From Raillietiella orientalis (Eukaryota): a stretch of DNA of 64,000 nt. Where the stretch lies: NCBI GenBank assembly GCA_036172245.1, contig JAYWIR010000055.1, positions 744,001 through 808,000 of the forward strand. Reading direction: 5' to 3'. This document shows positions 4,089 through 64,000 of this stretch, piece by piece. A model generated the notes under the pieces. That model saw only the letters and a list, made by a program, of their open reading frames with translations, made no database searches and was not told the DNA's origin. The number at the start of each line of letters is the position of its first letter. Position 1 is the stretch's first letter. The position numbers were made by a program, and so were the translations under genes.

Positions 4089-4179
4089 CAATCAGAAACT
4101 GAAAATCATAAATAATACAGTGAGCAATACAAATCTGTGCCTTAAACTTCTAAATTTCAAGCAGTCTTTCGTTAAAGTG

Positions 4180-7100
4180 TTAGTTCCCAATTTCTTCCCC
4201 AAACTTTCGCCAAAACACACTGGGTATGAATGAGTCCTTTGATGACTGGAAAGGTACAAACTGATTCGAAAGATTGCAGACAACTGCACTCAGTAAAGGA
4301 GAGACGGTGACTGGAGGCACACGTGTAAAGGATACATCCTGAATAGTGGTAGTCTGACCCGGATAGGTTCCACATGATCCCCGTAATTTTCTGATACAGC
4401 TGTAGTTTGTTTCTAAGAGAGTTCAAGAAACAACGATGACTGATAATAAGCTGCTAACCTAAGGACGTTTGCTTTTCGAAACTCTTCATCCAACTCCCGT
4501 GATTCGTTCACCAGCTGCTCTAAACGCCGCAGTTTTGCTTTCTGCTCGTTTTCCAACACAGTCCGTTCGTCATGGGCACGTTCCTATTTCGGGGGAAAAA
4601 CACGTAAACGCTGTATTGCTTCCCATTTGAAAATCCAAACTGCTTTCTCTTACTACTTTCTCTGCAGCAAACTGTCAAATCGAAAACGTAAGCCAACGAA
4701 ATGTTGCACCTCGACTTTGGCAATCGAACTGCCAACAGCCAACGCATTTCATGCAGCATGAAAAACTAACGCTGCCTTCCACACTGCAACACCACCGACC
4801 GCAACATCGTTCGTGTAAAGCGACGCCTTTTGACGAACCACGGAGTCCCGAAATGTTTTCCGGTAATGCTCTCATGCATGCTTTCGACTTCCTTGAAAAT
4901 GGCTATCCACAAAGGCTGCATTTTGGAGATTTCCGTTTATGGCATGGCTTGCGGATGATACTGAATAAATCGATTTCCTTCGGCAAATGTGGAAAATTGG
5001 CTTTACTCTGCCAGATCCATTTTATTCCTATTCCTAGTTTTACTCAACCCTATCTTTGTAAGCTCATATCCTTAGGAAGGAACAGGGATAAAACCACTGC
5101 GAGGGGGAAATAACGAAGAGCATTTACTTGCGTTGAAACAGAACCAGAAAAGTGCACTTTTTTCAAGAAAAAATAACTGCTGGCAACAAATACCCTGAGG
5201 ACTCCCACAACAACATTTGAAACCAAATCTGATGCAAACAGGTGATGAAGTAAATCTAAGAGTAGATCTAAGAATCGGAGAAACCTTGCCTTAGACAAGA
5301 GTTAGGAATTTTACTAAAATCATGCAGTCTGTATCCAGTGTGCAAGCTAAAATTTCCAAGGTGGGTACAGGCCACAACTCCATACTTTGCTTTCCCTGCA
5401 CTCTATGTTGTCCATACGAAGAGTTTTTTATCTTTTTTTTTTTTATAGCACTTACAGCATGGCACTCTGATCCTAGTTGCGAGCAAAGCCGTACTTGTAT
5501 TGGACTCTCCAACATGAAAATGATTTGTCCCGACATGCTCATTTTCCTTGCATTCACTATCTTTTTATCGATCAAAAGCTCACCAATTTTCCGTTCTGTA
5601 CATTCTATTTTATCGAGGTGTTGAAAGAACCTCAATAGTCATCTTTAGTGTTTTCTTTAAACCTGCATAAAACTTTTATATCATGAGAAATTCAAGAAAG
5701 GCATGCTGGAATGACTGATGGAAACCGGAGTAAACTTGTATCATTGCAAAGCACAATATTCAGCACTTGAGAGAATTGCCACAGATAATAACATTTACAA
5801 CATTCATTACCCTAAATTTTCTCTTTGAAATGCAGTGTCATTCTAAAATTCGGAAGTGGCCAACTGAAATGTGATCTTATATTGGAAATACAATGTGCAG
5901 CTGTACATCAGTTTCTCTACATTCATACCTAACCACTAGCTTTAAAATTCCCTTTGTTAATGGTGGAAATTGAGTAGAATGCTAGACATTCAACATCAAC
6001 GAAACTATGCTTCCAATCTTCACAAAGCACCATATCCATGAGCAACGTAATCAACCAGGTTAAGTTTCATTTTTGATAACTCATATCAGTATCTCATTTC
6101 CAACTGACAAATATTTTCAAGCATCACAAATCCCTCATCTAAATTCATATAGTAAAATTCCGGAATGCCATGATAGAATTCCTTTCAAAGTATCTTATTT
6201 CCTCCTTCTCTCCAAAAACGGATTATCTGGTGGAATTACTATTATCTTATTCTCTCCATTCACAATTTTTTCCTGCTGCGACAAAACTCAGAAATCTGCA
6301 CTACAATCGCCTCACAACATTCTGAAAAATTGATTCCATGGTAAACCATATGCAAGAATCCACGAGCCTGTATTTCAAACTCACATTAATGCTTTCCTTT
6401 GCAAGGCATTTGCCTTACAAAGGGTCAAATATATTTTGCGGATGTTTCACAACTATTGTAAAGATTCACATGTTTACAACTATTTTTTACTTTTTCCTTA
6501 CATATATGTAAGGAAATTCCTTTCCAGTGGAAGTACCCCAAATCTTAATATACGTATTCCTTATTTTTTTTTTTTCTCGGGGGAAAACAAAATCGGTTGT
6601 AAGAACAGCCTAATTATTATTCATTAATTATCGGATATCCGATATATGACTAATTATACATCATTATTTTCTGCAAAAACCGAAACAGTGTACGATTCAA
6701 CACATATATAAACAATAAACTAGAATGTGCGAAAGAAAGAGATAATAACTAAAAATCCAAACAACATGCAGCTATTACTGATTTTTCAATATGATTACCA
6801 AAATCATTCTTAAAACCTAAAATTCTGTAAAAAATGTAAATAAAAATAAAAACAAAAAATAAATTAAAAAGGCACACTTTATGAAAAAAATCTGCAAGAT
6901 TACCAAATGAACTACACCAGTTCAGATGAAGATTGGATCTAGAAAAAGTCACTTACTGATTCTTTTTGCTTAGTTTGTAATTGTGTTAGTAACATCTCTC
7001 TCTCTTGCACCATTAGTTGCTCTTCAGCCAATCTCTCTTTCAGAGAATCTGTGGAGTTTGTTTCTGCCAAAGGCAAGGCACACACACCTGGTATCTTGCT

Positions 7101-7344: not shown

Positions 7345-10300
7345 TCAATAAATGACACTGCTCAGTAACTGCTCATCACACTCAAGTCCTAGTTCTTCAC
7401 AAAAGTCTTTTTTTTTTTTTGGATAATTCTCCAGAATTATATCAATAATGTCCGTAGCTATTCGTTTACGTTTTTTCCATTCTTTTTCATATTTGTCAAT
7501 CTCATCTTGCAATTCTGATTTCTGCTGTGGACAAACTTTTATGGGATTCTGTGACAAGTTTAGAAGTTTATTTTGCAGTTTTGCAGTTTCTTCATCTACC
7601 TATGTTTTATAAATGCAATCATTATTCCATTTCCATATTAAATCGAAAACATACACCAATAAATTAATTAAAAGTGTGTAATTAGTGCAGTAGTATTGTC
7701 AAATTCAGCATTCCCAGTTCTTAAAAACGAAAAATCAATTCCTCAAAAAAATTGCTTTCTTTCATTAACAATGAATAAATCTTTCATTTCATCAGATTTT
7801 TCCTAATTAATTTTCTCATAACTCCTCACACAGATAGGTACAAGTCCTCATTTTGTGATTCACCATCACTGTAATAAATTTGCATTGATTATATGAATGA
7901 AATTAATCCTTGGAGTATTTAATAATATTCATTCGAAAAAAGAAAAAAAAAAAAAAGGGCACAGCAAGTTACTAGAGTTTGTTTAGGAAACCCTGGCTAC
8001 TTCCTCAGATATCCAATTATATAATCACTCCTCCAACAACCTATACTCAGCCTTTTTACAGAACTTTTGGATATTCAAAAGGAATCCCCAATAACTTGTT
8101 CCTTTTTCATACTTATAAATACAAGTATTAACTCCTATTTTATTTGCAATTATACCCTTAAACTGTACACTCATTTCTTAGGTACAGTGTAGACCGTGTG
8201 TCTTGTCTTAATACAATCTTCTAGCCTGAAGTATAAAATATACACTACACTGTAATGTTGATGCTTCAGCAGTTTTCTTGAAAGAACAAAAGAAAATGTA
8301 TTTCTGACACTACAAAATTATATACTAAAAATTAATGAAGCATAACACAAAGTCAAACAAACATTTATCCTTAATTTTTTCTTTTCAATGACTGGTCATG
8401 CTTTTATTCATCTCACAAGTTTGTTCTGAATCATCAGTGCATTATTATGATACTGGAAACTCCACAATTACAGGAACCAAATGCCAAATATTTTTGAAAT
8501 ACAGATTGCCTTTTCTGGCATTCTAGTCAAGTCCATTATCATGTAGTTTTCCTTCATCTTTAAATAAAAGATACACTACTACTAAAATCACAGAGTGCAT
8601 GAGCAGCTCCTGGATCTTGAAAATGCATCTTATTGGCAATGCTTTTAACTAATTCTGCCAATGAACGTCAAATGGGGGAAAAAAAAAAAAAAGGCGAATA
8701 GGCCTAGATTATTTTTTTTTTTTTCCAATTAAAAATTCGTGCTTGAAATCATGAGAATTGTGAATGGTTACACAATAAGTCATTAACATGCAATAAAGTT
8801 TGATACTGAGAATTGATTCATGCTCAAAAATCTAAATATTACAAGATTAGATAACAGATTTCAAATTTACATAAATTAGGCAAAATATAGAAGCTGATTG
8901 CATTTCATAGCATTTCCTTGTGATATGTCCAAGAAACATCAGCATGTGCAAAAGTTGTATAGAATCATAATAAGCATTAGACCATAATAACATAGAAGTC
9001 ATTGAGTACACCAATATGTTGCATTATGAAAAGGAATGAGTTCTGAACATATGGTCACATGGACAAGAGTGATTGGCATTAACTCTTTGACATTAACAAT
9101 CAAGGAAGATGATGGAAATATCAAAAGAAAGTGTTCCAATTAGATGGAGTTATGTATTCCATTAAGCAAGCAGAGGAGGAAATGGCTGTGTATACTCGAA
9201 TTAGTTTTGTTCAACCTTTGTATCATGATAGAATTCATTAGGCATGTCACATGCAAAAGATGCAAAACTCTTTCAAGTAAAGTTCATGCAATGAAAGACA
9301 TTAAACACCTAAGGAGTCAATTTACTTATTCCTCTGCATGTACATAAATTACGTCATAATCATTCACCATGGATTAATTTTATCCAGAAAATTTAAAAGC
9401 ATTTTTGTTTATGATCATCTGCATATTTCTGTAAACAATTTTTAAAATTCTTCGAAACATTCATGTTGCAAGAGCAAAAACAATTGTATTTGTATTATAA
9501 TTAATAATATTTAATAATACTCCATGATTGTTACTAGATACACTTTTTTTATATACACATTGCAAATACTGTATAAAATTAATACACACAACAAATACTT
9601 TCAGAAATACTGTAAGCACTATAAGTCCCATGTAATTCTGGAATAAAATTAAGTTTGGAATGCACTTCTCCGTCATAATTTATAACTTTTGAAAAATTCT
9701 AATGAACCAATGTTTGTTCTGAATGGTTTTAAGATTATGTAAGAAAATGTACATGCTGTATTCTGGAAAAAAAAACAACCTTTTGACTATCTATTATCAC
9801 CAAAATTTGCTTAAAATCTCTATGTACGTCAATTGTACAATATATTTCGACGATAAGTTGTCAATATTAAAATAAAGCATATCACACAACAGTTCACAGG
9901 AATCTATTCAGAAAAAATCTAAAATGCCGGATAGAAAAAGGGTAAAACATTCAAAACTGACCTATCACCAAACAATCTAGAACAAGGACTTACTAAAATA
10001 AAAGATAAAACCAATATTAATAATTTCTATAACCAAGATTTGTTGATTTCTTAATGACTGAATGTTGACCCCGAATAATGCTGCATAAGTAATAAATGAT
10101 GAATTAGTAACAATCTGGGTCCAAAACTTCTAGTAAAAACTTCTAGTAAATTCCAAATATGTTTCTTTTTCGTGTCTTTATGTTAACAAAAAAATACCAA
10201 TTAATAATCCAAAAACCATGTCAAACAAACAAAATCTTAATTGAGAGAGATGTCCCGAATTATAAGCCAGTACAAACTGAATTCGAACCAATATTTCGTC

Positions 10301-11130: not shown

Positions 11131-13600
11131 GAAAAGGACATTTAAAAAATGCGATTCCCTATTCAGCTACAACCTTAGAGATTTTAAGGCACACTTGAAA
11201 TTCAATGGGACTACTGCACGCATCAATGTTGCATTTCATTCTGTCACAAGCATAAATAGTTGGAGTGTTTGCATAGAACTGTAGAATCGTCTGATAGCAC
11301 GTTTACACAATGGTGGATGCTGTCACAATACAGTAGGACGAATTCATGATCCTTAAAGAAACGCTAATTCCATAAATCATTAGTAATGTTCGTTTTCTTA
11401 TGCCAAAAACTCCTGTTGAATCCTGTACCCACATTGGGAGGTACTGTGTAAATATACTTTTTATTTCAGGACAAGTTGAGTGGTGAATATTATTATTTAC
11501 TTCCGAATTCCAAAGTCATTATTACAGCTGAATTAAAGTGTGCATATTATTCTGACATTGCTTATTCCCTTTAAACTGCACCCATTAGGAATCAGGCATT
11601 TAATGACCACTGTTAACGAATTTACTTTCAGAAGTATTTCTACTAATAGTATGGAAAGGAATGATCTGTAGCATTGAATCTTTATGATTTATCACTTAAG
11701 TCATGTCATGTAATTCACGAGGGATAATTCTCCAACTAAAGCTTCAAGGCAACTACAGAATATATATAATAGGGAACTGCACTGAACAAGGATTATACGA
11801 AAATAATACATAATAATATGAACTTATTTTTTTTATTTATCTTGAAATATCAAAAAACTAGTTCGGAGCTATTCTCTATGAGCAGCATATCGCCTTTATG
11901 CAATCCAACTAAGCTACAAAGTGATGATTCCCAAATTATTTGAGAGCATTACCCATAGATGCCATCAAATTTTCCACAGTCGTACATTGTACAAACAAAT
12001 TTTCCGTATAGAACAATTCCTTAATAACAACATTAAAGTACTGCTTCAACATTAAATTAAGATACTCAAAGAAATAATATAGAAGTTTGCATCATAGCCA
12101 AGGAACAAAACAGTAAGACATTAAGAATATTTGAAAGAATTAAGTATGGCCAATTATTAGTATATGGATAGGTATCAATCGGTACAGTGAAGATGTTATT
12201 AATATTCAGATGTATCAAAATCAATATCATCTAATCTTCTCGATGTGAATGAAAACAGTTATCATTATGAGAATCCCTTCACGCGCATCCACATATGAAC
12301 AGCAGCAAAATGTGTAAAATATTAACACTTGGAATGTCATATAAATATAAGTAAGAAGGCAACAACAAAAAACTGGAAGTTAGCACCAGATTTCAGTATC
12401 TCAAGTTTCCAAATGAAACCAAATTTTTACATTAGTGTTGTGAGTACATAGTAGGGTTGCCTTTAACTTACATTGCCAACTCAAAAAAGTCATGAAAACT
12501 TTAGCTGTGATTACGTTTCCTTGAAAATTTCTTGGTATAATCAAACATTCTTCCTGGATAAGGAAAACGGTAATGTAGTGGATGATTCAAAATAAAAGTC
12601 CCGGAACATTTTTCTCCTACTTTATGAAAATGAACTAACACCTTCTCACCTTTATTGACGTAAAGGTGAGAATTAATTTGTTAGAATGCTCATAATGCTT
12701 GATAGTTTCTGAATAACTTTGATCCATTTCTTCCTCTTTTCATCTGAGTTTATGTCTTGTCTCTTCGTCAGTAAGAAACATTCATGAAAATTCAATTATT
12801 TATAATATTTTATGATTCAGATGCTCAAATAACTCTAATGTATGTAGCTATTTCTAATCATATTTCAATGCCCATTATTTTGTCAACAGATAATTTACAT
12901 CCACAAAGATCAAGTTAATTAAAAATGATTTCCTAAATATTAATACCTTCCTAAATGTTATGATCCTCCAATTCTTGAGTTTGATTTTTAAAAATGTTAA
13001 AATATTTCGACAACATTTAAAAAAGAAAACAATTTAAAAATTCAATGCTTTTATGTTTCTGCTTGGGAAAGTGTTGCCGTGCTAAGGAATGCACTAGGGT
13101 TTCCGTTAATGCAGTAAGGAATTAATACACAGACGAAAAGAGAATATAAAGCGGGAAGAAAATGGAAAATGATATGAGAAACAAAAGGAATTTCAAATAT
13201 TTTTTGAATTCTACCTTGAGTGATGCTGACATTTGTGAGCCTCATTTCCTGACGTATAATTTTTTTTCTAAACATCTTAAATCTTCATTAATGGGTTTAG
13301 GACGTTTACATTAGACAAATAAGGATTTTGCTACATATTTCGTTGAATGTTTGAAATCCTTTTCATTTCAGTATCTACTGTGCATATTTGAATTCAATTT
13401 GATACTAATATATTAGAAATGATGAGGTTCACAGGAAATATAATTTCATTTTGGTCAGAATTGCGGATGTTGGCAAGCTTTATTTACTGTACAGTTTGAA
13501 TTGCAGCGAAAGATTTATACATCGGCAATGTGCATCAGTATTGTGAATGTGTTTTTGGCTGTGAGGTGCTGTCATTCTGATGTCGCATTTAAAAGGAAAA

Positions 13601-16600
13601 ATGACTAAGTGTTCAATAAAACTTTATATCAAGAAAGTTGATAAAAATATCCGCGCATCCGGCATGAGGAATCTGCTTTTGCGAAGAGGATTGAGAATTC
13701 CATCGTCTTTTAAGAAAGATGCCACATACAAAGATAAAGATTTTTCCGCATGGTACATTGAGTATGAGACACAGAAGTATGTAATTTGAAACTGAGGACA
13801 TAATCATCAGGTTCTTTTAGTGAAGCGTCCAATGTTATTGCCGTTCTCCATCGTAAACCGCCTTTGTATTTGGATGTTGAATTAGATCAACAGAGATTAG
13901 AGAGGAAGAAACGAAAAGAGAAAAAACAAAAGTAAATTTGACAAAAGTTTTACTTAGCTGACAGAGTTCACGTTTCTTACAGAATGGAAGATGAAATCAA
14001 TTCTGAATTGCATTCTAGTTCATGGAAAAGAGAATCCAAAGTTGAGAATTCATCCATCTTTGATAGAGTTTCTGATAAGATGTATGTTATGTTGTCTTAA
14101 GAAAATTTATTATTTTCTTTCAGTGTAATGACAAGTAGCACATTAAGCATCCCACAGAAAAATCATGAATTAGCTCAAAACCATTCCTCCTATCCTTCCT
14201 ATGGTGTTATTAATGGTCTGATAAAGCATCAGGTACTATTGTAAAGTAGATGTTAAATTTATTGGATGCTTTAAATCTTGCATGCAGAATAGTATTCGAA
14301 TTTTAGGAGAACCTGAAGTATTTTTGGAAAGTGCTGGTTCCTGTGCAGTGTGTTTTCGAATTGCTCTTTTGTATTGCAAAAGGTGTTGTGAGTTCTTTTG
14401 CTCTCAAAGATGCCAGGTTGCTGGATGGCCTCAACACAAGAAATTTTGCAGGTGAAGTGAACAAAAATTCAATGTTTTAGTAAAATGAAAGTGATTTTTA
14501 CAGAAGAAAGATCAAAACAGTGAACTTTTCCCCTTATTCTGCCTTTACAGAGAAATGGTTGGAAAGGATGACTGATATGAAAGAAGCAAAAAAGACTGAT
14601 TTGTTTGGGTCCCACAAACAGGTGAACTTCATAATTCTTCCAACTTTTCGATTTTCTACTTTTGGATAGGTGATTGCTGTTCCAGTACAAATTTTGCCAA
14701 GCAATGTATACACCCGTGTAATTGTTGGTGATATTTTTAATCCAGATTTCTTTTTTCTTAAATTGATGGAGACATCTGTGAAATTGCCAACTGCATCTAC
14801 CAAACAGACAGCTGTCCAGAGTTCACATTTGGTTCCCAACTGTTTGGTGCTTGTAAATGATGAACATAATAAAAATCAGTAGTAAGTACAATATCATTGT
14901 GAATGCTGCAGTTGTTAGTTTGAATGCAGCAATCGAATGTTGGTGCATTCTGTTGCTGCTGCTGATGTTTTTGGACTTCTTATTGATCATGGACAAATGG
15001 TCACAGTATTGGCTGATCAGTGCTTTCCTTTGACTAGTTCATTGATGGACTACCCAGTTCAGGTTTGTAATTTCTTTTCCTTTAAAGAAATTTTTTGCTT
15101 CAGTCATTTTCTTGTGGACTGGCAGGTATTAAACCAAATTCAGGAAAAATCTGGGATGAACATAGCATTGCATCATTTAAAAAACTGTTTGATGTCTCTG
15201 GAAAGGATGCATCGTATTGGGTATCAGTTGGAGGACAGGTTTGTTTGCATTTTTGCTTCTGTAACCCTATATGATGACTTTAGGATGAGGGGGGAGTATT
15301 AAGAGTGCAGTTGTTATATGGCACTGATCCTATGAGTTCTTCCAATATTAGTATGATGCTTGTAGAGTCAGGAGCAGCATCAGAAGACGACATGAGCAAT
15401 TTGCTTACTAGTACTACTACCTTTTTGTGAGTAATTTTACCATTTCCTACTTCAGAACATGTTTATGTGTAGGCATGGTACTCTAGTGCCAGAGGCATGG
15501 AAAACATGTAGTTTCCCTGCGTTTCTGCATCCAGAAATACAATATCCAGGAACCATATTTGAAGATGCAGTTTCTAAGGTGCTGTGGCTTCAGTTATTAC
15601 CATCCCCTGAGGAAATACCTCTGCATCACTTGCTTTCATTACCATTGGATATGTTGGAAGCTTATTTAGAAATTGCAGTATCTTCACAGTCATTTTTAAT
15701 AGCTGCATTCTCAAAAACGAAAAACTGTTGGGGTCGTGCCTATGTGCTTGACAGTGCTGGCATCAAACTGAGTGTCCAGTTTGTAGATTGGGGGTTTCAA
15801 GAATGGACAGAACAGCATGCTGCCCTGCCACCATCGTTTCAGTGCTTGCCTCCTCTTTGCTGGCGTATGCAAAACACTTTACAAGCTACACTACCATTCA
15901 AGGGCACTGTTCTTTTCAAATATGTATCTCCAGCATTTGCCAAAGTACAACTATATGACCATAGCAATGAGTTTCTTTGTGAAACTGTAGTGCACCCTTG
16001 GTTTAAGTGTGTTCCATCTCAAAGAAATCCCCACTACCAGCTAGAACATGTTCATCAGACCCCTTTTCCTGAAAGTAATTGTATTGAAGTTGATTTGGTT
16101 TCTATGCCACACCATTGGCTGGCTGTTGTACAGTTGCAGAGTGATCAGGCCATGTTGAATGTGCTTTCACAACACCTTGAAAATATCTATCAGCATCTTC
16201 CTGCTGAATCTAGTTTTGTACCACGATTAGGTGAATTTGTAGCCAGCAGTTATGCAGGCAAATGGTACCGTTCACTTATTGTGAGGATACAATACACCCA
16301 TGCATGGATCATCCATGTAGATTATGGTAGAGCAGATGTGATCCACATCAACAAATTGCACCCACTTTTTGAAGAGTTTCTTCAATATCCTATTTATGGA
16401 CGGGAAATCATTTTAGAAGGCACACTGAGTGGCAAGTGGAATATGAGTTTGGCAATCAATCTCTCTCTCTATTATCAGAGAAAATTTTCCCTCACTTTGG
16501 TAAGTTTTTCAATAAATATTGCTCTGTAGTCTCCCACTTAGAATACTGGAAAAACAAGTGCCATAAGGGGAACTTTGGAATTATGGGAGCATTCTTTATG

Positions 16601-25900: not shown

Positions 25901-27300
25901 CTTACTGCATGAATATTCTGAAGAAGACATTCTATTTTTCTTAGAGTTATGGAGAAGGTTATTGCATGAATGTGCATTTTCACACCAAGAATTTGAATTT
26001 TGAATTTTGAATCAGGCTACTTGACTTTAATTCAGACTGAGATGATTGTGACAGTCGTGCTGTTTTAATGGCTTAGTTCTCATCCAATTCTCGGGAATCG
26101 TTCTTTCCAAATTATTGCAAAAGAGGATCTGATCCATCATTATTTCCCGAATAGATTGGATTACATTCTTCTATGTGAGCACTGCTGTGATACCACGAAC
26201 TGTTTAGGTTAAGCTGTACTGTTGACTCGGCCTCCTTCAGGTTCAAAACATAAGGACTCATAAAAAAATGTTGATACTTCGTTTCAGACAGCCTGAAAAC
26301 ACTTCACTGTTTTTTTTTTTTTTTTTTCTCGTGGAAGACATGATTCTCAAGTTCGCTGATCTACAAACTACAGATCAGTGAGTGATCCATGTTCCTTCTT
26401 GGGGAGGAACCTTAGAAGTGTTTCATTTTAGAGTCTTATTGACTGCATCCAGCACTTTCATTTACAATGGAAATCGCCGTCACAACGGAAATGATCGAAC
26501 CTCCCCCCCCCTTCCTCCCCGCTAAATTTTGGTGCATTAAAATTCTTTTGAACCTAGGTGTTTTTATTTACAAATATTACATGCAAAACAAGAGTAATAC
26601 TGAGATAAAATATTATGAAAGTTGGGCAACATGTGATTTTCAGGTTCGAGAGAATTAGAAAAATCAAAATTATGTGCGAAATTTGATGGATTTTAAACAG
26701 AAAAGGTGAATTCAATTGAGAAATTCGCTACACAATGTTGTTTAATGAAACCTATTGCTTGGTTTAATAATTGCTCTTTAAATAATTAAGAAGCCGGCAA
26801 TCACTGCACTGTACATCTAAAACCACTTGCTTTCTACTAGTTTGTAACCGTCTGTAATGCAACACATTCTGTATTGTTTCACACAGGAAGCGCTCAGTTT
26901 GATTTTCAGTAATCTTTCACGTTTTTTTCACCAATTGCTATGATTTTCAAGACTGATTTTGCTAGCTGGTAGCCTAAGGTGGTAAATGTGAGATTCATTT
27001 TCATGTGTTTCCCCATAATAGTTACCAGTAATCATAAGTTCACATGTGTTGGAATGGGGTGCATTATTTACAGAACAATCAAGTAATCAATATATCGAAT
27101 CTATATAGAAGTTTCAGTCATCATTCTATAAAAATCATATCAAATGTTAGAAATATTTATGGGAATGTGAAGCTATGTGGGAATTGTTAGGATGTTAGGT
27201 ACTTGTTGGTTTTCATCTACCAAGACAAACAAAAAGTATTTATTTTGCATTTTGAAACAAACATTGGTTTTGCAGCTTTTGTTTCAATGAACAGTATCTC

Positions 27301-33019
<5,719 letters not shown>

Positions 33020-52800: not shown

Positions 52801-55363
52801 GTATGTCGGCGTGGCACCACAAAGTGTCGCGGGTTCGAATACTCGATAAGAATTGGCGTCGAGGAATTAAAATCCTTGGGCGTTCTCAACATTTTCAACA
52901 CAGCACGCACGCCCCGAGTACTCAGCTTTTGGCCAAGACTTACGAGAGGAGCCCGACTTGCAGCCGTGGCAACAAAGAAGCAGCAGCAGCAGCAGCAGCA
53001 GCAGGTTGTTGAAAGACTTTATTACGGAGATGAGGAACAAACAAGTGAAACAAAGAAACACTGCGTCCTTGGATGGATTGCGCGGCTACCATCGGTCTCT
53101 GCCACGTTGCTCTTAGAGCGCTCGTTCCATATTGACCATTTCTTCGTTTTACAGGGATCCCTCAACTTTTTATTTCCGTTTCAGAATGCCAGTCCTCCTC
53201 CTCCCACTGATGGACCGCTGGATTACGACTCAACTCCTCGAGTTCCGCTCCATCGTTCTGCGGATCGATTCGCACCGCTCCGGACTCAAAGAAGCGACTT
53301 TGGCCAAACTTTCGGCTGCCAGCAAATGAGACGTCAGCTCTAAACTCCCTAACGAAGATGGAGTTTTGGCTCTAAGCAGGGACCCCAGTTCGTGGGGAAA
53401 GGGCCGCCAATTTCTTGCATGCCAGGGCCAACTTTCTTGGAAGAGTCCGTTCACCTACTCGCGTTCTTTTGTCTTCGAAACATGCGGGGTAGAGTCAAAA
53501 AGTCACGGACAAAAATCTACAGCTGCCGGAGATGGCCGCAACCGATGCTTCAGACATTTCATTATGCATGCAACAAGTGCCCGGCCACGCACGCAACCGA
53601 CGTACTCGACGTGCGAATACCAACATGCACTTCCGTCGGCGAATCAATTCGTTCCTCATGAGCCCGCCCTCCGCGAAAATCAATCCTGGCAGGCGATGCT
53701 TTTTTTTTTTTTTTTTCTTTTTCTTTTAGCCATCCTTCAGAAAGCGGAGATTCTCTACAGCATGGGGGACTTCGAACACGCACTGATGTTCTTTCAGCGC
53801 GGGTACCAGACGCGACCTTACAACGAGAGCTTCAAGATGGGCGTCCGAAAGGCGCAGAAGGCCATCGAGAACGCCCTCGAAGGTAGGCCGAAAAGGAACG
53901 GGAGCTTCGGGACCGCCTGCGGCGCTTCCAAGGTAAAGACGTCCTGACGTTTGGCAGCCTCGACGTCGCGCCGACGGACGCAGACCGCGGGAACGCGGAA
54001 GACGACAGCAAACACTCGGAGTGCCAGAACGCGAAAGAGAACTCGTCAGGGCTTGACGAGGTCATTTCAAAGAAAGTGCTGGAAGAGCTGGATGTGGACA
54101 AGCGCTACTTCGAAAGCTTGATCAAGTCGCCTTGTAAGGAGAGCATTTTGACCCGCCCCTCCTGAGCGTTCCTTTGAAAAACAAAAACAAACCCTCAGAT
54201 CTTTCCGACGAGGACTGCGCCGCCTCCAAGATGGAAGCGCACGAAGCGTTGAACTACTTGTCGTCGCGCCAGCGCTTCTGGTTGCAGCAGAGACCACTCA
54301 ACCTGCGGAAGCCGGGGAGAGTGACCATCTCGTTCTCCGTAAGCTCGTGGGGACTGCGCGCCTGCGGCGACAACCGGTCTTTCAGAGGAGCCCGGACAGC
54401 CACCGGGGTGGCGCGCGGCAGGAAAAGAGCCCGGCTAGGAGGAAGCCGCAAGCATCGCGCGACCTCCTGAGGCAAGCCGAAGCAGGTTCTGAATGCGTAT
54501 GTCCTGGAGCCGCGCCATCGTTCATCCGGGAGCTTTCCAGCCTTCCGGAGGGCATCCTACGACAGCGTCCTGCAAATCACCGGCAGAATGCTCAAGGAGT
54601 GCAGCTCGGACGACGTCGGCCCGGAGGAACTCATCCGCGTGTACCTTCTGAAGGGGAAGGCACACCTGCAGCTTGGGAGCTACAGGCGCGCACTGTCGGC
54701 CTATCGTGGCGCCCTGGCTCAGGCGACGCAGCAGTTGAGAGGGGAGGGGGGGAGTATCGATGGTAACGGGGGGTGGGTCCTCACACGCGGCATGCGCAGG
54801 AAACTGGACCAGGAACGGCGCCACCTCGTGTACCACATCGGCCTGGCGCACCTGCAGGCGAAGTGCTACCGGAAAGCCATCGAGGCGTGGGAGGAGTTGA
54901 AGAACGGGAAAAACGCTGTATTGACGTGCTACTTGGCCTGGTGCCACCTGAGTAAGCGCCGGGGCAGAGGGGCCTCCGGCTGCGAGCGTTTCAGGTGCCA
55001 ACCAGACGTGGGCGACGAGGAGAACGCCCGACTGTACGCGCTGCGCACGCTGGAGATGGAGTCGCCGTCCGACGAGCAGACGTCCTACGCGATGGCGTCG
55101 TCGCTCATCATCGAGGGGCAAGTCCAACGTGAGAGGGGGATCGAGGGGGGGGGGGTCGTCATCAAGGGATCGACGCTCCGATCCCCCACGTTGCAGTGCG
55201 GCAAGGGCACGCCGCGGCCTGCTCGGAACGGTTGCTGAAAGCGGCCGGGTTCGCGAAGCGCGCAGGTCAGGCAGGCCACGCCGCCCTGCTGCAGGAGCTG
55301 GCGTGCGTGGTGGCCGAGGAGGAAGAGGTCGGAACGCCTGCGGACCATCAGGAGCAAGGGTAG
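43834..55363 (+). CDS. TTC25: Outer dynein arm docking complex subunit TTC25/ODAD4 (TPR protein), full-length copy
   Basis: First exon 43834-43974 or one ending at 47413; then 47929-48061 (ALELEPGNKECLVIRSTCLLSLG..AL.D.E.AL.IDP), 53730-53882 (AILQKAEILYSMGDFEHALMFFQRG...GVRKAQKAIEN), ELDVDKRYFESL and YLSSRQRFWLQQRP. C-terminal TPR exons end in 55197-55363. Confidence 0.88.
44090..45000 (+). mobile_element. Decayed RTE-like LINE relic in TTC25 intron
   Basis: Ordered motif ghosts GQSGLRKGPS...VIR, TGVRG..ELRPL, MRGQTRKEWAHPGRH, ALPW..KGGRK..P..RW, AAQHLENRR across shifted frames. Confidence 0.4.
52981..53004 (+). repeat. (CAG)8 microsatellite, intronic
   Basis: Eight tandem CAG units read directly from the sequence. 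Confidence 0.9.
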
Positions 55364-56496
55364 CTCCAGTCCTGGCCGAACCCACAGGCCGAATCGGAGT
55401 CGGAGTCCTCCTTGATGCGCGGAGGCGGGCGTAACACGGAGAGCACCTGGTCCGCCTGCTTCTTGCTCTTCTTTCGCTTGAAAGACATGGTCTTCGGGGG
55501 CGGCATCCTGCGGGAGTCGATCTGCAAAAAAACACTCGCAATCAGCGGGAAGGCCGTGTCAAGCCGTGAAAAAAAACAACAACAACAAAAACAAAAAACT
55601 GACCATGGCTTGCAGGTTGTCGATGGAGCTCCAGTTGCGACCCAGGGTGGCGCCCGCCAGCAAGTTGTTGATCACCTCGGTGGTCTTTTTGACGCGGACG
55701 TTGAACGAGCCCATCCGGAGGAAGCTGGTGCCGATGCCATGCTCGTGGTGACGCCTCCTGTCGTGCAGACCTACGCAAAAAAATAAAAGGAAAAAATCAG
55801 AATGATTGGCGAGATTCCTGGTGGGGGAAGCCACACATGCTCTCACGGTCATCTCGGCTGCAGCGGCGGCGCGGCATCCCTAGGGTCACACACCGAATGG
55901 CAGAGTGGCTGAGGAAGTCGAACGAAAGAGTCCGAGGAGCAAGGCGGAAGCTGGCGCGAAATGCAACAGCTCTCAAGAGCAGGAAACAACTAATAGGCAA
56001 TCCAGATTTTTAATAGACAGAATCACGTGGCATATCGGTAACACAGTTGCCTCAGGTGAAGACGGGACTTTCGCCGCTTTTGCTCATCGTTGTCCTGGCT
56101 GCTAGGAGAAATTCTCCGACGTCGCTTATACTCACTTCCAAGCACCTCGCAGAAGATTTCTTTGGCTGTGGTGTACTGGTGCGGCTTCTTCCCGCTGTAG
56201 TCGCGAGCGTTGTTGTCCGCATCTGAAAATCGCGTTGCCGGTGAGCCCGTTTCTGCGTGGGCGGAGGGGAGAGATGCCTACCGTACGTCTGCACGAGCAG
56301 GTCGAGGGCCTCCTGGCTGTTGCACTGCGCCGCGATGTGTAGCGGGGTGTAACCCTTCAGAAGGAAAAGAAATTTCGGTTTCGGCGCCCGTCCACCTACA
56401 CCTGGTCGTCAGAAGTACTTACCCCGTGCTACAAGATGCAAAACGATATCAGCACGGGAAGGAGCACGCAGGCATCCGCAACCAGGAGCAAGCAAG

Positions 56497-56534
<38 letters not shown>

Positions 56535-59500
56535 CTGCCTCCGGCTGTTGCACGAATACGCGCCAAGCAAAAGGAGGGGGGCAGAGGGGAGGGGGGGTCC
56601 AGGTTTTCGACCAAACGCACCAACAGATGTTTTCCGGAGAAATGCAGCACGCGGGCGACGGGTGCGCACAGTCGCACGGAAACCGAGGTCGGGTCGTGCG
56701 CGATCTCTACCGCGGATCCACATGGATGCGGGACAGGATATGACCCCAGGGAAACGTCCGCAGAACGGAGATAACTTCTTCTCGAACGAGGCGTGCCCAG
56801 CGTCTTGCCTAAGGGCTGCGGAGACGAACCGCCGGGTGTCGAGGGTGACTTCACCGGCGAAGTCACCCTCGACATCTCCACCTAGAAGGAAGGGTTGCGG
56901 CGCCCGGCGGGGTCCGTCAAGGAACAAAATGAACCATGAGGGACAGCAAGTGAGTGTTCCGGTGTTTCCAAAAGCAGTGCCGTGAGCAAGGCGAGCGAAG
57001 AAAGTCAACATGGGGTCAAGCGTCCCTGCTTGCTGCCGGCCAAGTCCCCCGAACTTTTTCAAAAAACGCGGCGCACCGAGGCGATGGCCGCTACGCACTC
57101 AGAGCGTGGATGGTCAAAAACGGGGAACTGCAAGCGAGAAGACGGATGAACGTCATGGGAACACCGGGAGACGGGGTGCTCCTCACCCCACGCCACTGCA
57201 TCCTTCGCAGGAAAGGGAACAACAACGAGCGACGTTTCGTAAACGAAAGCGGCGAGGCAAACCGCGACGATGGCCAAAACATTCACGCGCGCATGAAGCA
57301 GCGTGACCCGGTAGGAGGACTTCACTACATGCAGGGAGGGACAGCAGCCTGGTGAAACACCAGGGAAACCGAATCCGCAACTCGTCTCGATGGCTCCTGA
57401 GGAGGTGGCGAGGGATTCGGAACGGATTCGATCCTCTTAAGGAGGATCCGGAAGCAATCAAGGGGGTTTCAGAAGTGCGCTGCTGCAAGGTGACCCTGGG
57501 TTTGGAGAGCAGCTTAACGCAATGGCACATCCACCGCACGAACGGGGGTCCAAGGAGACTTAGTCGCATCCAGAGCCAGGGCACAATAAACGCTTCGCTT
57601 CTTTCACCCTTCCCCGTAGCGCTGCTGGCGCCCGCCGCCACATGCGCTGCACGCCTTCGGTTCCAACGGTCAGTTTGACCGGCACAACTTTCCGATAGGA
57701 CATCACTGCTTACCGATCTCGCGTTGACGTCACATGCATATTTGCCGGCAAGGAGCTTCACCATGTCCGTGTTGTTGTGCTTCGCCGCCCAGTGGAGTGC
57801 AGTCTGAAAGTACCAAACACATGAGATCCAGGAGGCAAATGCACAGCACACAGTCTGCGTGGGTGGTGGCGGCAGAGCGCTTGTCGCAACAGCTACAACG
57901 AAGAAAACAAAGACTCTTTCTTAACGAGAATTCGGCTGTGGCGGGTTCCCGTGACGAATGCGTCCCCGTTTCGTGTCGATGGGATCCCCCAAAACGTGGC
58001 GACGGAAGAGGAATTCGCGCCCGAAGCACCGCGACCTTTACATTACCGGCTCGAATGCCTCCGCAAGAGTTTTCACAGGACCGCCGCATCGTTTTCACCA
58101 GAGACCTTTGCGGTGCTGCTGCCTCCTCTGGCACAGGGATCGCCACGGCGCTGTCCTTTTACGTAGGGCGGCCCACCGTTCGGTGAACTCGTAGGCACTT
58201 GAACTCTCATGGAAACACAGGGAAACTGTTGCCCAACGGCTGGAGCTCCTTGCAGCCGCTTCCGAGCTTCGAACAGGAAAACGTCCGTGGCCGCAAACAA
58301 ACTCCGCCGCGCGTCTCCTGGAGATTCCCCCCCCCCCCCGCTTCTCCAAGAGTCGGAAACATTCTTCTGCACTTGCAAGAATCGAAAGCAAAGAATGAAT
58401 GTTTTCTTCATCCCTCATTTCACCCATGAGTTATTCTTCATGGGGGGTTCCGTCTTCACTGACTGAATTCGCGTGGCTCTCCGTTGACTTGTCCGGGACT
58501 TGCCGACGTAACCGTACAGATGGCCGCGAAGCAACTTTGCATCAAAGCCGCATTCTAAAGCAAGTCGCCCAAGATTCCCCGTGCTGCCCGAGTGGGCAAG
58601 GTGCTGTACAAACACGCACTGACCACAGTGACAGTCTCGTCGGGAGATCGGCGAAAGCTCTTTTCTCTATTTGATGCTTCCCATCGCTTTCGCGCGTCTG
58701 CAGCTTCTCGGGTCTCGTTTCCATGGATTCCTCCGTACACTAAAGTCACGGTTTTCTCGTACTTCGTCAGCAAGTTTTTGAAGTGATCCCGGGTCTCGTT
58801 GGGTGCACCCTTTCGTGTGGCCCACTTCCGGGCCCCTGCGCCATGCCGCATTTCTCCCGTTCTACGTGCTGTCCGTTTTCGGTCTGCCTCTCGCAGCTCG
58901 CATCATAAAGAAATGGTCCACACAGCGCCAGGAAAAACTTTCACAACTCCACCAGCACTCCCACGTCAGCAATCAATGGGCTGGAGAGTACGGCTGACAA
59001 GTAAAGCGGAAGCTAACTTGAGACAGATGCCATCCCGAGTTCCTCATGGCAACCTACTCCTCGGTCCTTTCGGAATGTAAAACAAGATAGTGAAAGAACG
59101 GAAGACAATTCCACACAGATAATACGTAAAGTCATTCAAAGTTCGAGAGCACCATTTCGCAGCTGCCAGAAGCTGACATCTCTTCCTCCATGAAACCCGA
59201 TGCTGCTTTCCCGGCTGAGCAAACAAACTTGCCGAATTCAATGCGCCTGGGCGGGGGACCACGAGCGGCTAACGTCTTATCATCACTTACAGTAAACTGC
59301 TCCGTGGCAGCTCATCGGAGATATGCGCAGTCATCGGACGAGTCTTAGCATGCACAAACAGGCCTAACCATCAGCGTGTGTCAACATTTGAGAATAGGAT
59401 AAGGCTGACAGAATGGAGGAAAAGTGGGGCCGTTAGCGAAGGGAGGGGGGGGGGGGTCACAAAACGGTTCACTCCGCAGTTCGGGGTCTCCATGGAGTTA

Positions 59501-62500
59501 CCATGGGGGGAACGGTCCCGGTTGCGACGAATGAGACCGCGATGCGCGCGCAAGAGGTCTGCAGAGTCTCTGCATGAGGAGAGGCCGGTGAGGGCGGGAC
59601 GACTGAGCGCACACTTCAAGCAGAAATTGGGCAGAAGTTCGCGGGGCAGTAGCAACCTTACACAGGCAAAAACCGCCATTTCCCGTTTCGGCACTTTCGG
59701 GGATCCTCAACCGAACCAGAGCTCCGGAAGAACCGGTGGCGTCTCTGGACCGAATTGTGGTTCCGGAGGGGAAAATAACGGCAAGAAAGAAAGGAACCCG
59801 CACCTTTCTACAGCACAAGAAGTGATGGACATGATAACCTCCAGGAATAATCTGAAGTGCCTGCGCACTGCTGGTACGTACGGTATACAAAAGCACGTCC
59901 ACTGCTGCCGAATGACCCTTGTTTTCAGCGAATCGGAGTCAGGGCATCTCGCCTTGTTCCCAGACGGCGAGTGAACACAGAACGAACGTCCCGAGAGAGG
60001 AAACCTCCCTGTGGCACATATAGGGGCGAAGTCCAGAAGAGGCACATGCCGTGGCCAGCGTTAGGCGGCTCGGGTTCTATGAAGGAAGTATGGATTTCCG
60101 AAGAAGCACGAAGGTTTCCGAGACAGGGTGCCATTTTGTGAATCCTTTGAGAGTAAGCAAGGAAGTAGCAGGTGCCACGAAGCAAGCAGCCAGCCCAGCA
60201 TGAGGGCTCACCCTGGGAAACTTGCGTGCCTAGATTCGTTCCAGGCTCGCGAGTCGCGGGCGGCAAGCGGAGAAACTCCGAGTAGCCTCGACGAAGATAT
60301 CCCCGCGGCTCGAACCGAAGACTCCCGGCACAGTTTCCCGATCGTATCCCGAGTGAATCGAGGTGTGTTTTTTTTTTATCCCCACGGTTGGCTGGGAAAC
60401 ACACGAACGGCGGCAGGCCGAGCTCATAAGGCTGACCGCACTGAAGGTGGAAGACAGCAGAAGCAGCACTCCCTGGAGTGCCATCGTCATCCGACACGCA
60501 AGTGCACTCGCTCCTTGGAGCAGCATGCGAATCCCAATTACACGGAGTGGGTGCACATGTGGTGGAGGATCGAACGAGTTTCGTTTTGGACGGCACGCAA
60601 CGGGAATGCGGCAGAACCCCGGACGACGCTCCTCAATTCTTCCGAGCGACAAACAGACGTCTGCCTGAGCGAAAAGCAAAGCGCCTGAAGTCACGCACGC
60701 ACGGGAAAGTTGCCGCGTCCAGGAAAGGAGCCGCGCGGTGTACGAACTTTTCGCTGCCGGGCAAAAGGCGGCGCTCCCCCCCTGCACCACACCGTGCGCG
60801 CTCTCTTTCGCATTTAACTTTCAGAGAAGGAAAAGACATACTTACATACTGAAATGGATATGCAGGTTCAGTTTGCACGTCCGCCAGGGGGACGACGGGC
60901 GACATGGAAAGCAAAAAAACAAATTAGAACCGCATGCATTCGTTCACTGCGGCTGATCTTGCACGGCGACAAGGCGGAGAACAACCCTCGGGACATGCAG
61001 ACGAAACTGCCACTTCACTTAGGCGCAAGAGAAGCCGTCGCAAAGATGCTTTTTTCGGGATGCAACCGATGAAAAAGATCACGGGACATCCAAGGTGCGG
61101 GGAAGAGACCCCACGAAGCAGGAAGCAATCGCCACGGTCCCGGGGAAGGGACGCCATGCAGTGGTCAAGGGCGGTAGACTGGCTCTTTGGAGAAACGAGA
61201 CTGCGGAAAAAAAAAGAGTGCGCTGGGACGAGGGAATGCACCGCGTTCCATAGACCATGGAGGGGACGGCTCGATCAGACCGCAGTTCCCCTTCCTGAGG
61301 AAGGAACTGCAGCACGCCTGTTTGGGATCCGACCTGCCCGTGCCGAGTGCACCAGATTTTGTTAGCATAGAGGGGAGAAAATTCGAATCGGGAGTCAAAG
61401 GTCGTCCGCATTGGTAGCACGACAGGGGCACGAAGGAGCTAGGAAGATGCAGTAGGGGTGGCCGCTTCCGCAGCCTAAAGTCATTCGGCCAATGTCCACA
61501 GGGCAGCACACCGCCGAAAACACCGGCGCCAGTGCGGCACACCGCGATCGCGGCGCTGTCGGCGGCGGACTGGACGGAGGAAGGGCGGGGGAGGGCAGGG
61601 ACAGGGAGCACAAGCTCGTCGCCGTGCATGCGGAGAACTCGACGAGAAGAGGAGGATCGGGAAGAGGAAGCTTCCCAACGCGCAGCCCGAGTTTTCCTTA
61701 CGGGAACGGGCCGAAACGGGTCGTACACCGGCACCGGGGCTCGCGCCTTTCGCGAAGCGTTCTCGGGTCTCTCGTCTGTGGGCAGCTTCGGAGATGCCGA
61801 AAAGAACAACGGGGGAGCGAAGGACAGAAACGCGCGCTCTCTCAAATTTTCTGTGCCGACAGTCCGACCTGCCCCATCTGTCGATCGACATTCGCAGCCG
61901 AAAAACAGGATGAGCGCGCGATGCAGGGAGTCCCCAAGAAACCGACCAGCAAGCGCGCGGGCTTCTCTCTCTTAAACACTGCAGGAGCAGGATCTGAAGT
62001 GCTCTGGTTGCCGGGGCCGGGTTCGGTCTCCAGACAGCCGAGTGCACGTGGACCCCGCGCACTTCCGCGTCTGGCCACCGCCTACCGGAGAGGCCGATTT
62101 GGGCGAGGGTCGAGTGCAGAGGAGATGGTTGGATCACCGGAGGATGCAACGCGACGCAGAAGGGACGCCTCGGGCTTCCTTCGGATACCGACTGCACGGG
62201 ATCGCTGAGCTGGAGCAACGAACGAACGCTTCGCGTCTGGTCTCCGGGGACGCGGGAGGACTCGGCTGAGGCAATGCGCCGGAAGGAAAGAACCCGGTGG
62301 GGAAACCACACTCTCGCGGAGACCCATCTTTCATACGCAGAGGACTTCCCCTCCCTAATCGTGATACTCACACCCTGGAATCACATGTCTCCGTGAGAAG
62401 CACTCCGTGCAGCAGTCGACAGTCTCCGTGAGATGCACATAGAAAAACACAAAGCAGTTATTTCTGTTGGGAAAACTCCACATCCAAGACTTCCAACCAC

Positions 62501-62571
62501 AGCATGCAGAAGCGTTCAAAGCATCAGCAATCAATCACTAAGAGCTAGTTCCACCTTACCGTAATGATGTC
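55348..62571 (-). CDS. sowah: Ankyrin-repeat protein sosondowah (SOWAH family), 3' part; upstream exons not identified in window
   Basis: Exons 57803-57714 (TALHWAAKHNNTDMVKLLAGKYACDVNARS), 56354-56282 (GYTPLHIAAQ), 56222-56136 (ADNNARDYSGKKPHQY), 55770-55604 (FLRMGSFNVRVKKTTE) and 55521-55348 (MPPPK...DSDSDSACGF). Microexons at 62571-62560, 62374-62372, 60848-60846 and 56428-56423. Confidence 0.9.
56423..56428 (-). other. 6-nt microexon CACGGG (His-Gly) of sowah
   Basis: TTTTGCATCTTGTAG|CACGGG|GTAAGT; restores the motif DVNARS-HG-GYTPLH. Confidence 0.85.
56498..56532. repeat. (CA)n/(TG)n microsatellite about 70 nt upstream of the 6-nt microexon
   Basis: Uninterrupted AC dinucleotide run. 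Confidence 0.9.
60846..60848 (-). other. 3-nt microexon TAT (Tyr) of sowah
   Basis: CTGAACCTGCATATCCATTTCAG|TAT|GTAAGT: consensus acceptor and donor around a single codon. Confidence 0.72.
62372..62374 (-). other. 3-nt microexon GGT (Gly) of sowah
   Basis: TGTGATTCCAG|GGT|GTGAGT; the pyrimidine tract is modest. Confidence 0.65.
62560..62571 (-). other. 12-nt microexon GACATCATTACG (Asp-Ile-Ile-Thr) of sowah
   Basis: TCTCTTTTGCTGTCTTTCAG|GACATCATTACG|GTAAGG. Confidence 0.75.
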
Positions 62572-64000
62572 CTGAAAGACAGCAAAAGAGACACATCACA
62601 AACGGGCAGCGTGAACAAGCACTGCGAAGCACAACGGCAAAGTCACGATCTCGTCAACCCGCGTCAGCGGGAAAGCGTCCCACCCAGGTATCCAGGATTC
62701 CTACATGGGAAGCCCATGTCTTGGGACAGTGAGTCACGAGCATCGCCCTCCTGTGGTGACAGCTTGGGTGCTTTCGAGAACGGGAAATTTAGGAAATGCA
62801 GCGAACGGTGAGCCGATGCACAGTGGCTGCAATAACCGAAAGCGGCGACTGGTGGAGCTTGCAAAAAAGAAAAAAAGAAAGAAAGAAAAGCAGCAGCACG
62901 TAGGAATCGACAGCAGTTCAGGTGAGAAACACAGATGCTTCGAGGGAAGAGCAGATAACGCGCTAATGGATTCTGTGGCTTCAACTGCAGAACATCAACA
63001 CACGTAGACGCACGCACCTCGACCCCAGAAACAACAGGAGGGGAGGAGCCAGCACTTTTTCCCTTTTTTTTCCTTCAACGCACGAAAAGCACAGCCGCAC
63101 TGGCTGAATCCAACCGAAACATTCAACGAGCATGAAATGGCCGCGGACGGAAGTCCTCAGTGGGCATCCTCTTCCGTCAGTGGTACTGGGGAAAGGGTGC
63201 CTCCGAACGGCTTTCGGAAAAGATGGGGGCAGCTGTGCGCCCTGTGGAACGCCTTCACCGGCACCGCGGGACTCACGCCGCCCCGGAAAGATTCGGGAAG
63301 ATGGTCCGCTGCGGTCATCTCTCAAACCGCCGGCAATGGCGCCGTTGATCCCGTGTTTCCTTTACCGATCCGTGGATGGCGCCCCACCTCGCTTGCTCCC
63401 TTCCGCGGAACCGGCGGGCTCCTCCAGGCTCTCTGCTGCTGCAATACACGCACTACAGCACGATACGTATCCCATTTACTCCAAATGGAAGCACCCGCAC
63501 CCACTTGGGCTTCTTATCCTGCTTGCTGTCACGCGAACTGAGTGATTGACGAGATTTCGATCGGGACTGCTCCCTCCCACGATCGCGTTGTGCGGACGCC
63601 GACGGATCAGCCTTACAGGTTGGGAGCGAAAGGGCTGGGCAAGCACGAAGGTGCGGTGCACGCCCAACAGCCTTTCAACGAACGCTGGGCGAAATTCAAG
63701 GGCAGTCAAAGGCATCTCCTCCGTCCCCGGACGGGATGGCTCTCCTGCTCCCTTTCGTGGGATGTACTGGCTTCCGGGTACGAAGCTTTCCGAGCGCATC
63801 CCAAGCTGCACCCTCGGAGGTGAAAGAGCCCCTCGCGCCCCGGGGCGTTCGTCGCCCTGCAAACCATGCGGGAGAGCTTTTTAGCCTTCGTCGCCGGAGC
63901 CGGACCGTCGTAGGGCGGAAAATTCGCCCGTCGTCGGAACGTCCCACGCGCCTCGGCGTGCCCCAAGTCCGAGCGCGCTCAAACCACCCACGATGCGTTC

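Follow-up and report, generated by a model that had tools for sequence, protein, structure and literature searches.

A predicted chain of microexons, including two consecutive single-codon exons, around the first ankyrin repeat of a SOWAH-type gene in Raillietiella orientalis

Very short coding exons have been described in several systems. In mammals, RPS24 carries a microexon trio of 3, 18 and 22 bp (PMC12207440, PMC11162997, PMC12686416), and conserved microexon clusters as well as 1-nt exons are reported for land plants (PMC8831610). Single conserved 3-nt exons are described in mouse Ncam and Drosophila TnT (PMC8042270), in Drosophila hth (micro-Ex8; PMC7392893) and in human MAP4K5 (PMC8632122). 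Titles, abstracts and selected passages of the literature on 3-nt exons describe no case in which two single-codon exons stand back to back. Here we analyse a 64,000-nt stretch of Raillietiella orientalis DNA (contig JAYWIR010000055.1, positions 744,001 to 808,000; hereafter the window), in which a gene of the SOWAH type (sosondowah ankyrin-repeat family) appears to contain such a pair. We think it likely that segments of 12, 3, 3 and 6 nt in this gene are real, old coding exons of the main mRNA, that they are mainly constitutive, and that they are probably spliced stepwise.

The window contains the 3' two thirds of the SOWAH-type gene on its minus strand; the region upstream of the 12-nt piece, including the 5' part of the gene, lies past the window end. 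SOWAH proteins have an N-terminal SOWAHA-C winged-helix domain (PF25877). In transcription order the exon chain reads 12, 3, 3, 90, 6 and 73 nt, and it is followed by the exons for the C-terminus.

62560..62571, minus strand: 12-nt microexon GACATCATTACG (D-I-I-T), phase 0; acceptor ctgtctttcag, donor gtaagg
62375..62559, minus strand: intron of 185 nt, from the 12-nt exon to the G exon
62372..62374, minus strand: 3-nt microexon GGT (Gly); acceptor ttccag, donor gtgagt
60849..62371, minus strand: intron of 1523 nt, from the G exon to the Y exon
60846..60848, minus strand: 3-nt microexon TAT (Tyr); acceptor ccatttcag, donor gtaagt
57804..60845, minus strand: intron of 3042 nt, from the Y exon to the 90-nt exon
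57714..57803, minus strand: 90-nt exon, T-A-L-H-W ... N-A-R-S, both helices of ankyrin repeat 1; ctttcag/ACT...TCG/gtaagc
56429..57713, minus strand: intron of 1285 nt, from the 90-nt exon to the 6-nt exon
56423..56428, minus strand: 6-nt microexon CACGGG (His-Gly); acceptor gcatcttgtag, donor gtaagt
56355..56422, minus strand: intron of 68 nt, from the 6-nt exon to the 73-nt exon
56282..56354, minus strand: 73-nt exon, G-Y-T-P-L-H ... Q-T-Y plus one base, ending in phase 1; start of ankyrin repeat 2
56136..56222, minus strand: 87-nt exon, (D)-A-D-N-N-A-R-D-Y-S-G-K-K-P-H-Q-Y ...
55351..55729, minus strand: C-terminal exons and stop codon, placed by tblastn with family protein P0003 and the list of open reading frames (ORFs), borders not refined

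All four microexons have a YAG acceptor and a GTRAG donor, a length that is a multiple of three, and phase 0 in frame with their neighbours. On the minus strand the contexts of the first three are tttcag/GACATCATTACG/gtaagg, ttccag/GGT/gtgagt and atttcag/TAT/gtaagt. A first-pass annotation of this DNA had proposed the 12-, 3- and 3-nt segments and the 90-nt exon, bounded by YAG and GTRAG and joined in phase 0, and we located every one of them where it had placed them, each with a length divisible by three. It had also stated that about 4.8 kb carries only 18 coding nt, which agrees with our measurement of 18 nt (12+3+3) in the 4768 nt ahead of the 90-nt exon. The fourth microexon, the 6-nt H-G exon at 56428-56423, was absent from that annotation and was found in the follow-up. 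It is the sole candidate in the interval of about 1358 nt between the 90-nt and 73-nt exons, from which our scan retained 6-nt segments ending in G and 3-nt segments coding for H, N or G. A (GT)n-type microsatellite lies at about 56450-56520 (minus strand), intronic and a short way ahead of the 6-nt exon, and appears as C-V-C-V in the ORF translations. The 12-nt exon is one of five strict 12-nt candidates on the minus strand, and it has the best pyrimidine tract among them (13/15).

The two 3-nt elements stand out against the rest of the window. With the pattern YAG/NNN/GTRAG, the minus strand of the whole window contains exactly two matches, namely GGT and TAT, ordered as the protein requires; the plus strand contains two unrelated matches. 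When both strands of the window were searched, YAGGGNGTRAG matched once (0.36 expected), YAGTWYGTRAG matched once (0.24 expected), and the H-G pattern YAGMAYGGNGTRAG matched once, where 100 shuffles gave an expectation of 0.00. By our own arithmetic from scaled expectations, the probability of finding G and Y in this order by chance within the 4.8-kb intron, on one strand, is about 1e-4 or less. The minus strand of the window also holds four strict 6-nt candidates, none of which codes for G-Y, and tblastn with 13 family proteins found no other exon in 57804-64000 that could supply these residues.

The protein encoded by the spliced chain is a SOWAH protein by several measures. Both the 90-nt exon and the 73-nt exon of the second repeat match Pfam Ank (PF00023). 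For the 90-nt exon the E value is 1.6e-8, and its residues 1-29 fall on positions 4-31 of the 33 in the profile. Thus, the G and Y of the single-codon exons would occupy profile positions 2 and 3. The identity of the 90-nt exon to family proteins is 63-83%, including Penaeus SOWAHA and SOWAHC-like proteins; the closest are transcript-derived SOWAH proteins, with up to 83% identity over this exon. A second family search brought in members from copepods, barnacles, springtails, bugs, bees and vertebrates. Further downstream, tblastn of P0003 matched 56220-56158, 55729-55619 and 55518-55363. Family members carry R-D-Y-S-G-K-K-P, G-S-L-x-V-K-V-K-K-T-T-E, M-P-P-P-K-F ... K-K-R-K-S-K and D-S-D-S-E-Y-G-F towards the C-terminus, and the C-terminal exons of the window encode G-S-F-N-V-R-V-K-K-T-T-E, M-P-P-P-K ... 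K-R-K-K-S-K and D-S-D-S ... G-F-G.

The spliced chain matches the family signature D-x-x-x-G-Y/F-T-x-L-H-W-A-A-K ... S-H/N-G-G-Y-T-P-L-H, and the residues supplied by the microexons are constrained throughout the family. We collected 130 proteins, of which 62 SOWAH-like proteins could be parsed by script. G-Y or G-F stands immediately ahead of T-x-L-H-W in 59 of the 62, and the distance from this T to the next G-Y-T-P-L-H is 32 residues in 56 of them; the window provides 30 residues plus H-G. These counts bear out the suggestion of the first-pass annotation that D-I-I-T-G-Y-T-A-L-H-W is a SOWAH reading. Where repeats 1 and 2 meet in a hairpin, members of the family have N-A-R-S-H-G-G-Y-T-P-L-H or ...S-N-G-G-Y.... 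The three exceptions at G-Y/F are all gene models derived from genomes; one of them is flagged LOW QUALITY, and two lack exactly those residues. In an alignment of 26 members, two vertebrates included, the Gly of the 3-nt exon is invariant (26/26), as is the first D of the 12-nt exon, and the Gly of the H-G exon is at least 90% conserved. According to an AlphaFold2 model of the 92-residue homologue P0005 (mean pLDDT 90.8), D27-Y32 form part of a non-helical stretch ahead of helix 34-40, and H63-G64 belong to loop 54-67, which lies between helices 44-53 and 68-74. Thus, the model predicts that the microexons encode loop residues and the 90-nt exon encodes the two helices.

The arrangement recurs outside R. 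orientalis. An alignment of the 30-residue exon served as the query for a scan of metagenome contigs. At least 591 stretches matched; 124 of them encode a relative, and we retained the best 80 as loci. The exon borders ag/T...S/gt are common to 14 of these best 80 loci (L001, L002, L006, L009, L010, L011, L013, L014, L025, L039, L043, L052, L053 and L056, the last sharing the acceptor only). Counting the duplicates L001/L002, L010/L011 and L052/L053 once each, there are 11 distinct sequences. Five further loci (L023, L049, L051, L065 and L071) have an AG before the T codon and were excluded; their exon lacks the SOWAH-type end and the next repeat. A G exon followed by a Y/F exon, both as strict 3-nt exons, is present in five of the 11 distinct loci:

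L006: GGC at 4727, TAT at 4864, main exon start at 4958
L013: GGC at 421, TAC at 532, main exon start at 605
L025: GGG at 219, TTT at 1403, main exon start at 2391
L039: GGG at 1488, TAC at 1579, main exon start at 1643
L052: GGC at 2925, TAT at 3623, main exon start at 4178

In each of these five loci, the G and Y/F exons are the sole strict matches on the gene strand of the whole locus; as a background, the strict 3-nt motif matched 22 times in the 510,456 nt of the antisense strands of all 80 loci. A Y exon is also found at the contig edge of L009 (TAT at bases 7-9), where the G position is off the contig. Codons vary synonymously between loci, with GGT, GGC or GGG for Gly and TAT or TAC for Tyr, and L025 has TTT for Phe.

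Other parts of the layout recur as well. L006, L009, L013 and L052 have a 6-nt N-G exon after the main exon, and in L039 (D-F-T-S) and L052 (D-F-V-M) the G exon comes after a 12-nt D-x-x-x exon. In L006 and L013 the equivalent D-x-x-x residues end a larger upstream exon (...K-D-M-Y and ...K-D-V-N). Introns flanking the microexons are 60-134 nt long in L006, L013 and L039, and 370-2368 nt in L052. For the window and six loci, microexon donors read GTRAG in 22 of 22 cases and GTRAGT in 20 of 22, while the 90-nt exon has a GTRAG donor in four of these same seven sequences. The hairpin is split differently in L039, where S is followed by a separate CAT exon (H, 2020-2022) and then by G-G-F-T-P-L-H from 2101; the intron position has shifted by 3 nt and the gene has three single-codon exons. 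L014 has a strict CAC (H) candidate at 11163-11165, 6.4 kb past the main exon; a weaker candidate, GGG (G), follows after another 0.7 kb at 11903-11905. These two may form a split of S, H and G in separate exons, with the next exon off the contig. In two members of the sequence group of L039, a single uninterrupted frame runs from the N-terminal domain to the end of both repeats; it has 479 codons in L017 (3974-5413; a 9.9-kb DNA contig) and 632 codons in L021 (8411-10309; a 75-kb DNA contig). Thus, all these introns are absent in L017 and L021, and the sequences point to wholesale intron loss. Judged from intron positions, the layout is old because they are shared by loci whose 90-nt exon is just 53-70% identical to that of the window.

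Transcripts of relatives contain the residues that gene models lose. In pentatomid bugs, transcripts from the 90% cluster of P0057 read ...K-F-K-D-P-T-N-G-Y-T-A-L-H-W; they encode 517 aa on contigs of 1.7-1.9 kb and are thus too short for introns. The Halyomorpha halys RefSeq protein has the same K-D-P-T-N-G-Y-T-A-L-H-W reading. The Nezara viridula gene model (P0150, 515 aa) lacks exactly D-P-T-N-G-Y, which is 12+3+3 nt, and the transcripts of its cluster contain these residues. Similarly, the Orchesella cincta model joins ...R-R-R-D-M-N directly to T-C-L-H-W where Folsomia candida has ...R-R-R-D-M-N-G-Y-T-A-L-H-W, so that exactly G-Y is missing, and a Nilaparvata lugens model (LOW QUALITY) also lacks G-Y. 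Transcripts of Montipora read ...K-R-D-F-M-L-G-Y-S-A-L-H-W ... G-R-T-N-G-G-Y-T-P-L-H. The RefSeq models of Montipora end directly after D-F-M-L, or after D-F-M-L-G plus an apparent intron read-through, and separate models begin inside repeat 2 (Montipora proteins P0140, P0142, P0141 and P0139). Both the broken Montipora models and the Nezara model stand against continuous transcripts of the same 90% clusters. The expectation that standard annotation would miss these exons was therefore correct. A few public models do include the exons implicitly, since some RefSeq proteins contain the residues.

Several observations weigh against our interpretation. Of the 11 distinct loci that share the exon borders, five did not yield the G and Y/F pair. 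In L011 a G exon stands alone (GGA at 6802, 2.9 kb upstream), and ahead of the main exon there is no Y/F exon with a GT donor; a TTC at position 7391 with a GC donor was too weak to call as the Y/F exon. No pair was found in the 2204, 4656, 708 and 33 nt of upstream sequence in L001 (a close relative of L011), L014, L043 and L056, respectively. For the exon upstream of the 12-nt piece, tblastn with the 13 family proteins gave only chance-level matches in 57804-64000. A weak look-alike at 60370-60344 was rejected as that exon; an Asp codon follows it instead of a donor. The gaps in the Nezara and Orchesella models could equally be explained by one missed exon of 18 nt or 6 nt in those species; the loci where G and Y appear as separate exons include L006, L009 and L013, whose upstream exon resembles springtail proteins. 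Finally, we infer inclusion in the R. orientalis mRNA from homology and conservation, and constitutive use and the order of intron removal are likewise deduced.

We weighed three other explanations of the short segments. The motifs could be accidental and the gene model wrong, a possibility we regard as the most remote of all. Minimal elements are indeed common, since AG/GGN/GT and AG/TAY/GT are by our own arithmetic each expected about once per 4-8 kb. However, with realistic site strength there are just two candidates per strand in 64 kb, and the minus-strand pair has the required codons in the required order; the arrangement of G and Y/F was seen again in five other loci, and chance leaves an expectation of 0.00 for the 6-nt H-G pattern. 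It is also very improbable, if marginally less so, that AG/NNN/GTRAG marks recursive splice sites used to remove a long intron, with nothing left in the mRNA and a protein that either lacks G-Y or takes it from elsewhere. Juxtaposed acceptors and donors in long introns are described as the signature of recursive splicing in Drosophila (bioRxiv 10.1101/006163), and the introns here measure 1.5 and 3 kb. True ratchet points, though, have zero bases between AG and GT, and here there are exactly three, which encode G and Y/F in six of six sequences (the window and five loci) with synonymous variation. The same elements occur in L006, L013 and L039 within introns of 60-134 nt that need no ratchet. 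Moreover, the spacing of the family requires the G-Y residues, and the window offers no alternative exon for them.

The remaining explanation is that the chain is a regulatory device, in which any subset of the 12-, 3-, 3- and 6-nt exons is skipped in frame and the resulting single-residue isoforms retune the binding surface of the ankyrin loop, much as the first-pass annotation had suggested. We consider this unlikely. It is true that every junction is in phase 0, that every length is a multiple of three and that the modelled residues lie in loops rather than helices, and alternative single 3-nt exons are reported from Drosophila TnT (PMC8042270) and hth (PMC7392893). Additionally, TGC occurs within 16 nt upstream of the acceptor at three of the four window microexons (minus strand, in 62572-62587, 60849-60866 and 56429-56442). 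A UGC near the 3' splice site is described as characteristic of microexons that depend on eMIC/SRRM4 (PMC10250204). In the other loci, however, TGC is inconsistent and present at just about 3 of 13 microexons, close to chance level. The splice sites are strong, not weak. Among the 62 family members there is no protein or transcript that lacks only G, only Y or only H-G, and no transcript was seen without G, Y or both; the three deviants at G-Y/F are the genome-derived models already described. The Gly at position 2 of the Pfam Ank profile, found in 26 of 26 aligned proteins, also speaks against skipping, as does the synonymous variation of codons between loci, which is expected of residues that must be present. 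The case for in-frame skipping is one of arithmetic, and as the main role of these exons it is not supported, given the invariant G. An evolutionary version of this idea holds that the 12-3-3-90-6 chain predates the split of the sampled lineages and is kept because the single-codon exons are included or skipped, so that the first ankyrin loop moves in register by one or two residues. This, too, seems doubtful to us; if true, it would amount to a residue-level splicing code for a binding surface. As the Montipora models break exactly after D-F-M-L, the chain may reach back to the cnidarian-bilaterian ancestor.

Based on these comparisons, we propose a model for the segments as constitutive exons that explains how they could be recognized. 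Five consecutive phase-0 introns would interrupt the coding sequence around ankyrin repeat 1, and the microexons would provide the loop residues before helix 1 of this repeat and the hairpin between repeats 1 and 2. That G is invariant and that codons change synonymously suggests that these residues are needed in the main product. A 3-nt exon is presumably too short to hold the complexes of its 3' and 5' splice sites simultaneously, and thus recognition may rest on near-consensus sites, that is, a pyrimidine tract with YAG and a GTRAG donor with long U1 pairing, and splicing may proceed in steps. The Insplico paper gives a steric argument of this kind for very short microexons and finds that one flanking intron is removed first (PMC10250204), and Blazquez et al. 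describe that a donor a few bases past a fresh exon junction is usable in a second step (PMC6224609). In the SOWAH-type gene, one flanking intron may likewise be removed first, which would merge the microexon into a longer exon, and the second site would be used afterwards, as in recursive splicing. We propose that near-perfect donors drive this stepwise, recursive-like path.

The rest of the window was surveyed as well. Its GC content shifts from 32-42% in the first 36 kb (1-36000) to 56-68% in the last 28 kb (36001-64000), which hold the SOWAH gene. This could reflect an isochore-like structure or an assembly join. Other genes lie on the plus strand of the AT-rich part, at 70-1745, 15435-16526, 27291-27725 and 31032-31430. 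They comprise exons of the fibronectin type III / DSCAM-like kind, an ORF of 364 codons with a Tudor domain, and a FAN-like gene with PH_FAN and BEACH exons. The ESM Atlas links the Tudor ORF weakly to Arthropoda, and the best named-protein match for a FAN exon is a beetle protein with 53% identity. Between 40000 and 52000 the GC content is 65-68% and many overlapping stop-free frames of 370-500 codons occur on both strands. Four of these frames were tested and none gave a Pfam match; the frames of this region are probably not coding. Scans of the window for Rfam families and tRNAs gave no matches.

We believe that the SOWAH locus is useful in three ways. Adjacent one-codon exons, with introns from 60 nt in some species to 1.5-3 kb here, are a natural limit case for exon recognition, and stepwise (recursive-like) splicing could be tested on them directly. 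The locus also exposes a systematic annotation error, in which SOWAH models lose exactly two or six residues (Orchesella, Nilaparvata, Nezara) or break (Montipora). Third, it bears on intron evolution, as six phase-0 intron positions within 40 codons are common to loci whose 90-nt exon has 53-70% identity to that of the window.

How does this chain compare with known systems? A full-text search for 'sowah' together with 'microexon' found no literature that links the two. Recursive splicing and cryptic microexons controlled by the exon junction complex (EJC) resemble the SOWAH elements in having a nearly superposed acceptor and donor used in two successive steps, as these are described (PMC6224609; bioRxiv 10.1101/006163). 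They differ in that no bases of a ratchet point remain in the mRNA, whereas three coding bases would be kept in SOWAH. The neural microexons of the eMIC/SRRM4 program, according to the accounts we draw on, share the size class of 3-27 nt, strong donors and a location in surface loops of domains, but they are tissue-regulated and have weak acceptors and a UGC element (PMC10250204; PMC8797185); the SOWAH acceptors look good and UGC is inconsistent.

Land plants are similar in that ultra-short coding exons have long been conserved, have strong GTRAGT donors and are pervasively absent from annotations, and adjacent microexons are reported there as a pair of 5 and 12 nt in rice (PMC8831610). The organisms and genes are different, however, the plant microexons are mostly single, and the portions of that study on which we rely do not describe two single-codon exons in a row (PMC8831610). 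Ncam, TnT, hth and MAP4K5 each offer a one-codon exon between normal splice sites, as reported, yet these are lone 3-nt exons and not a back-to-back pair, and those of TnT and hth are alternative. RPS24 is described as a single gene with a series of consecutive microexons, one of which measures 3 nt, and standard tools detect them poorly; its exons are alternative and lie at the 3' end of the coding sequence, where they change the C-terminus. In SOWAH, by contrast, two adjacent 3-nt exons together with 12- and 6-nt exons would lie inside a folded domain, encode family-invariant residues and probably be constitutive. In sum, single 3-nt exons and runs of microexons were already known, and two adjacent single-codon exons would be a further form of them.

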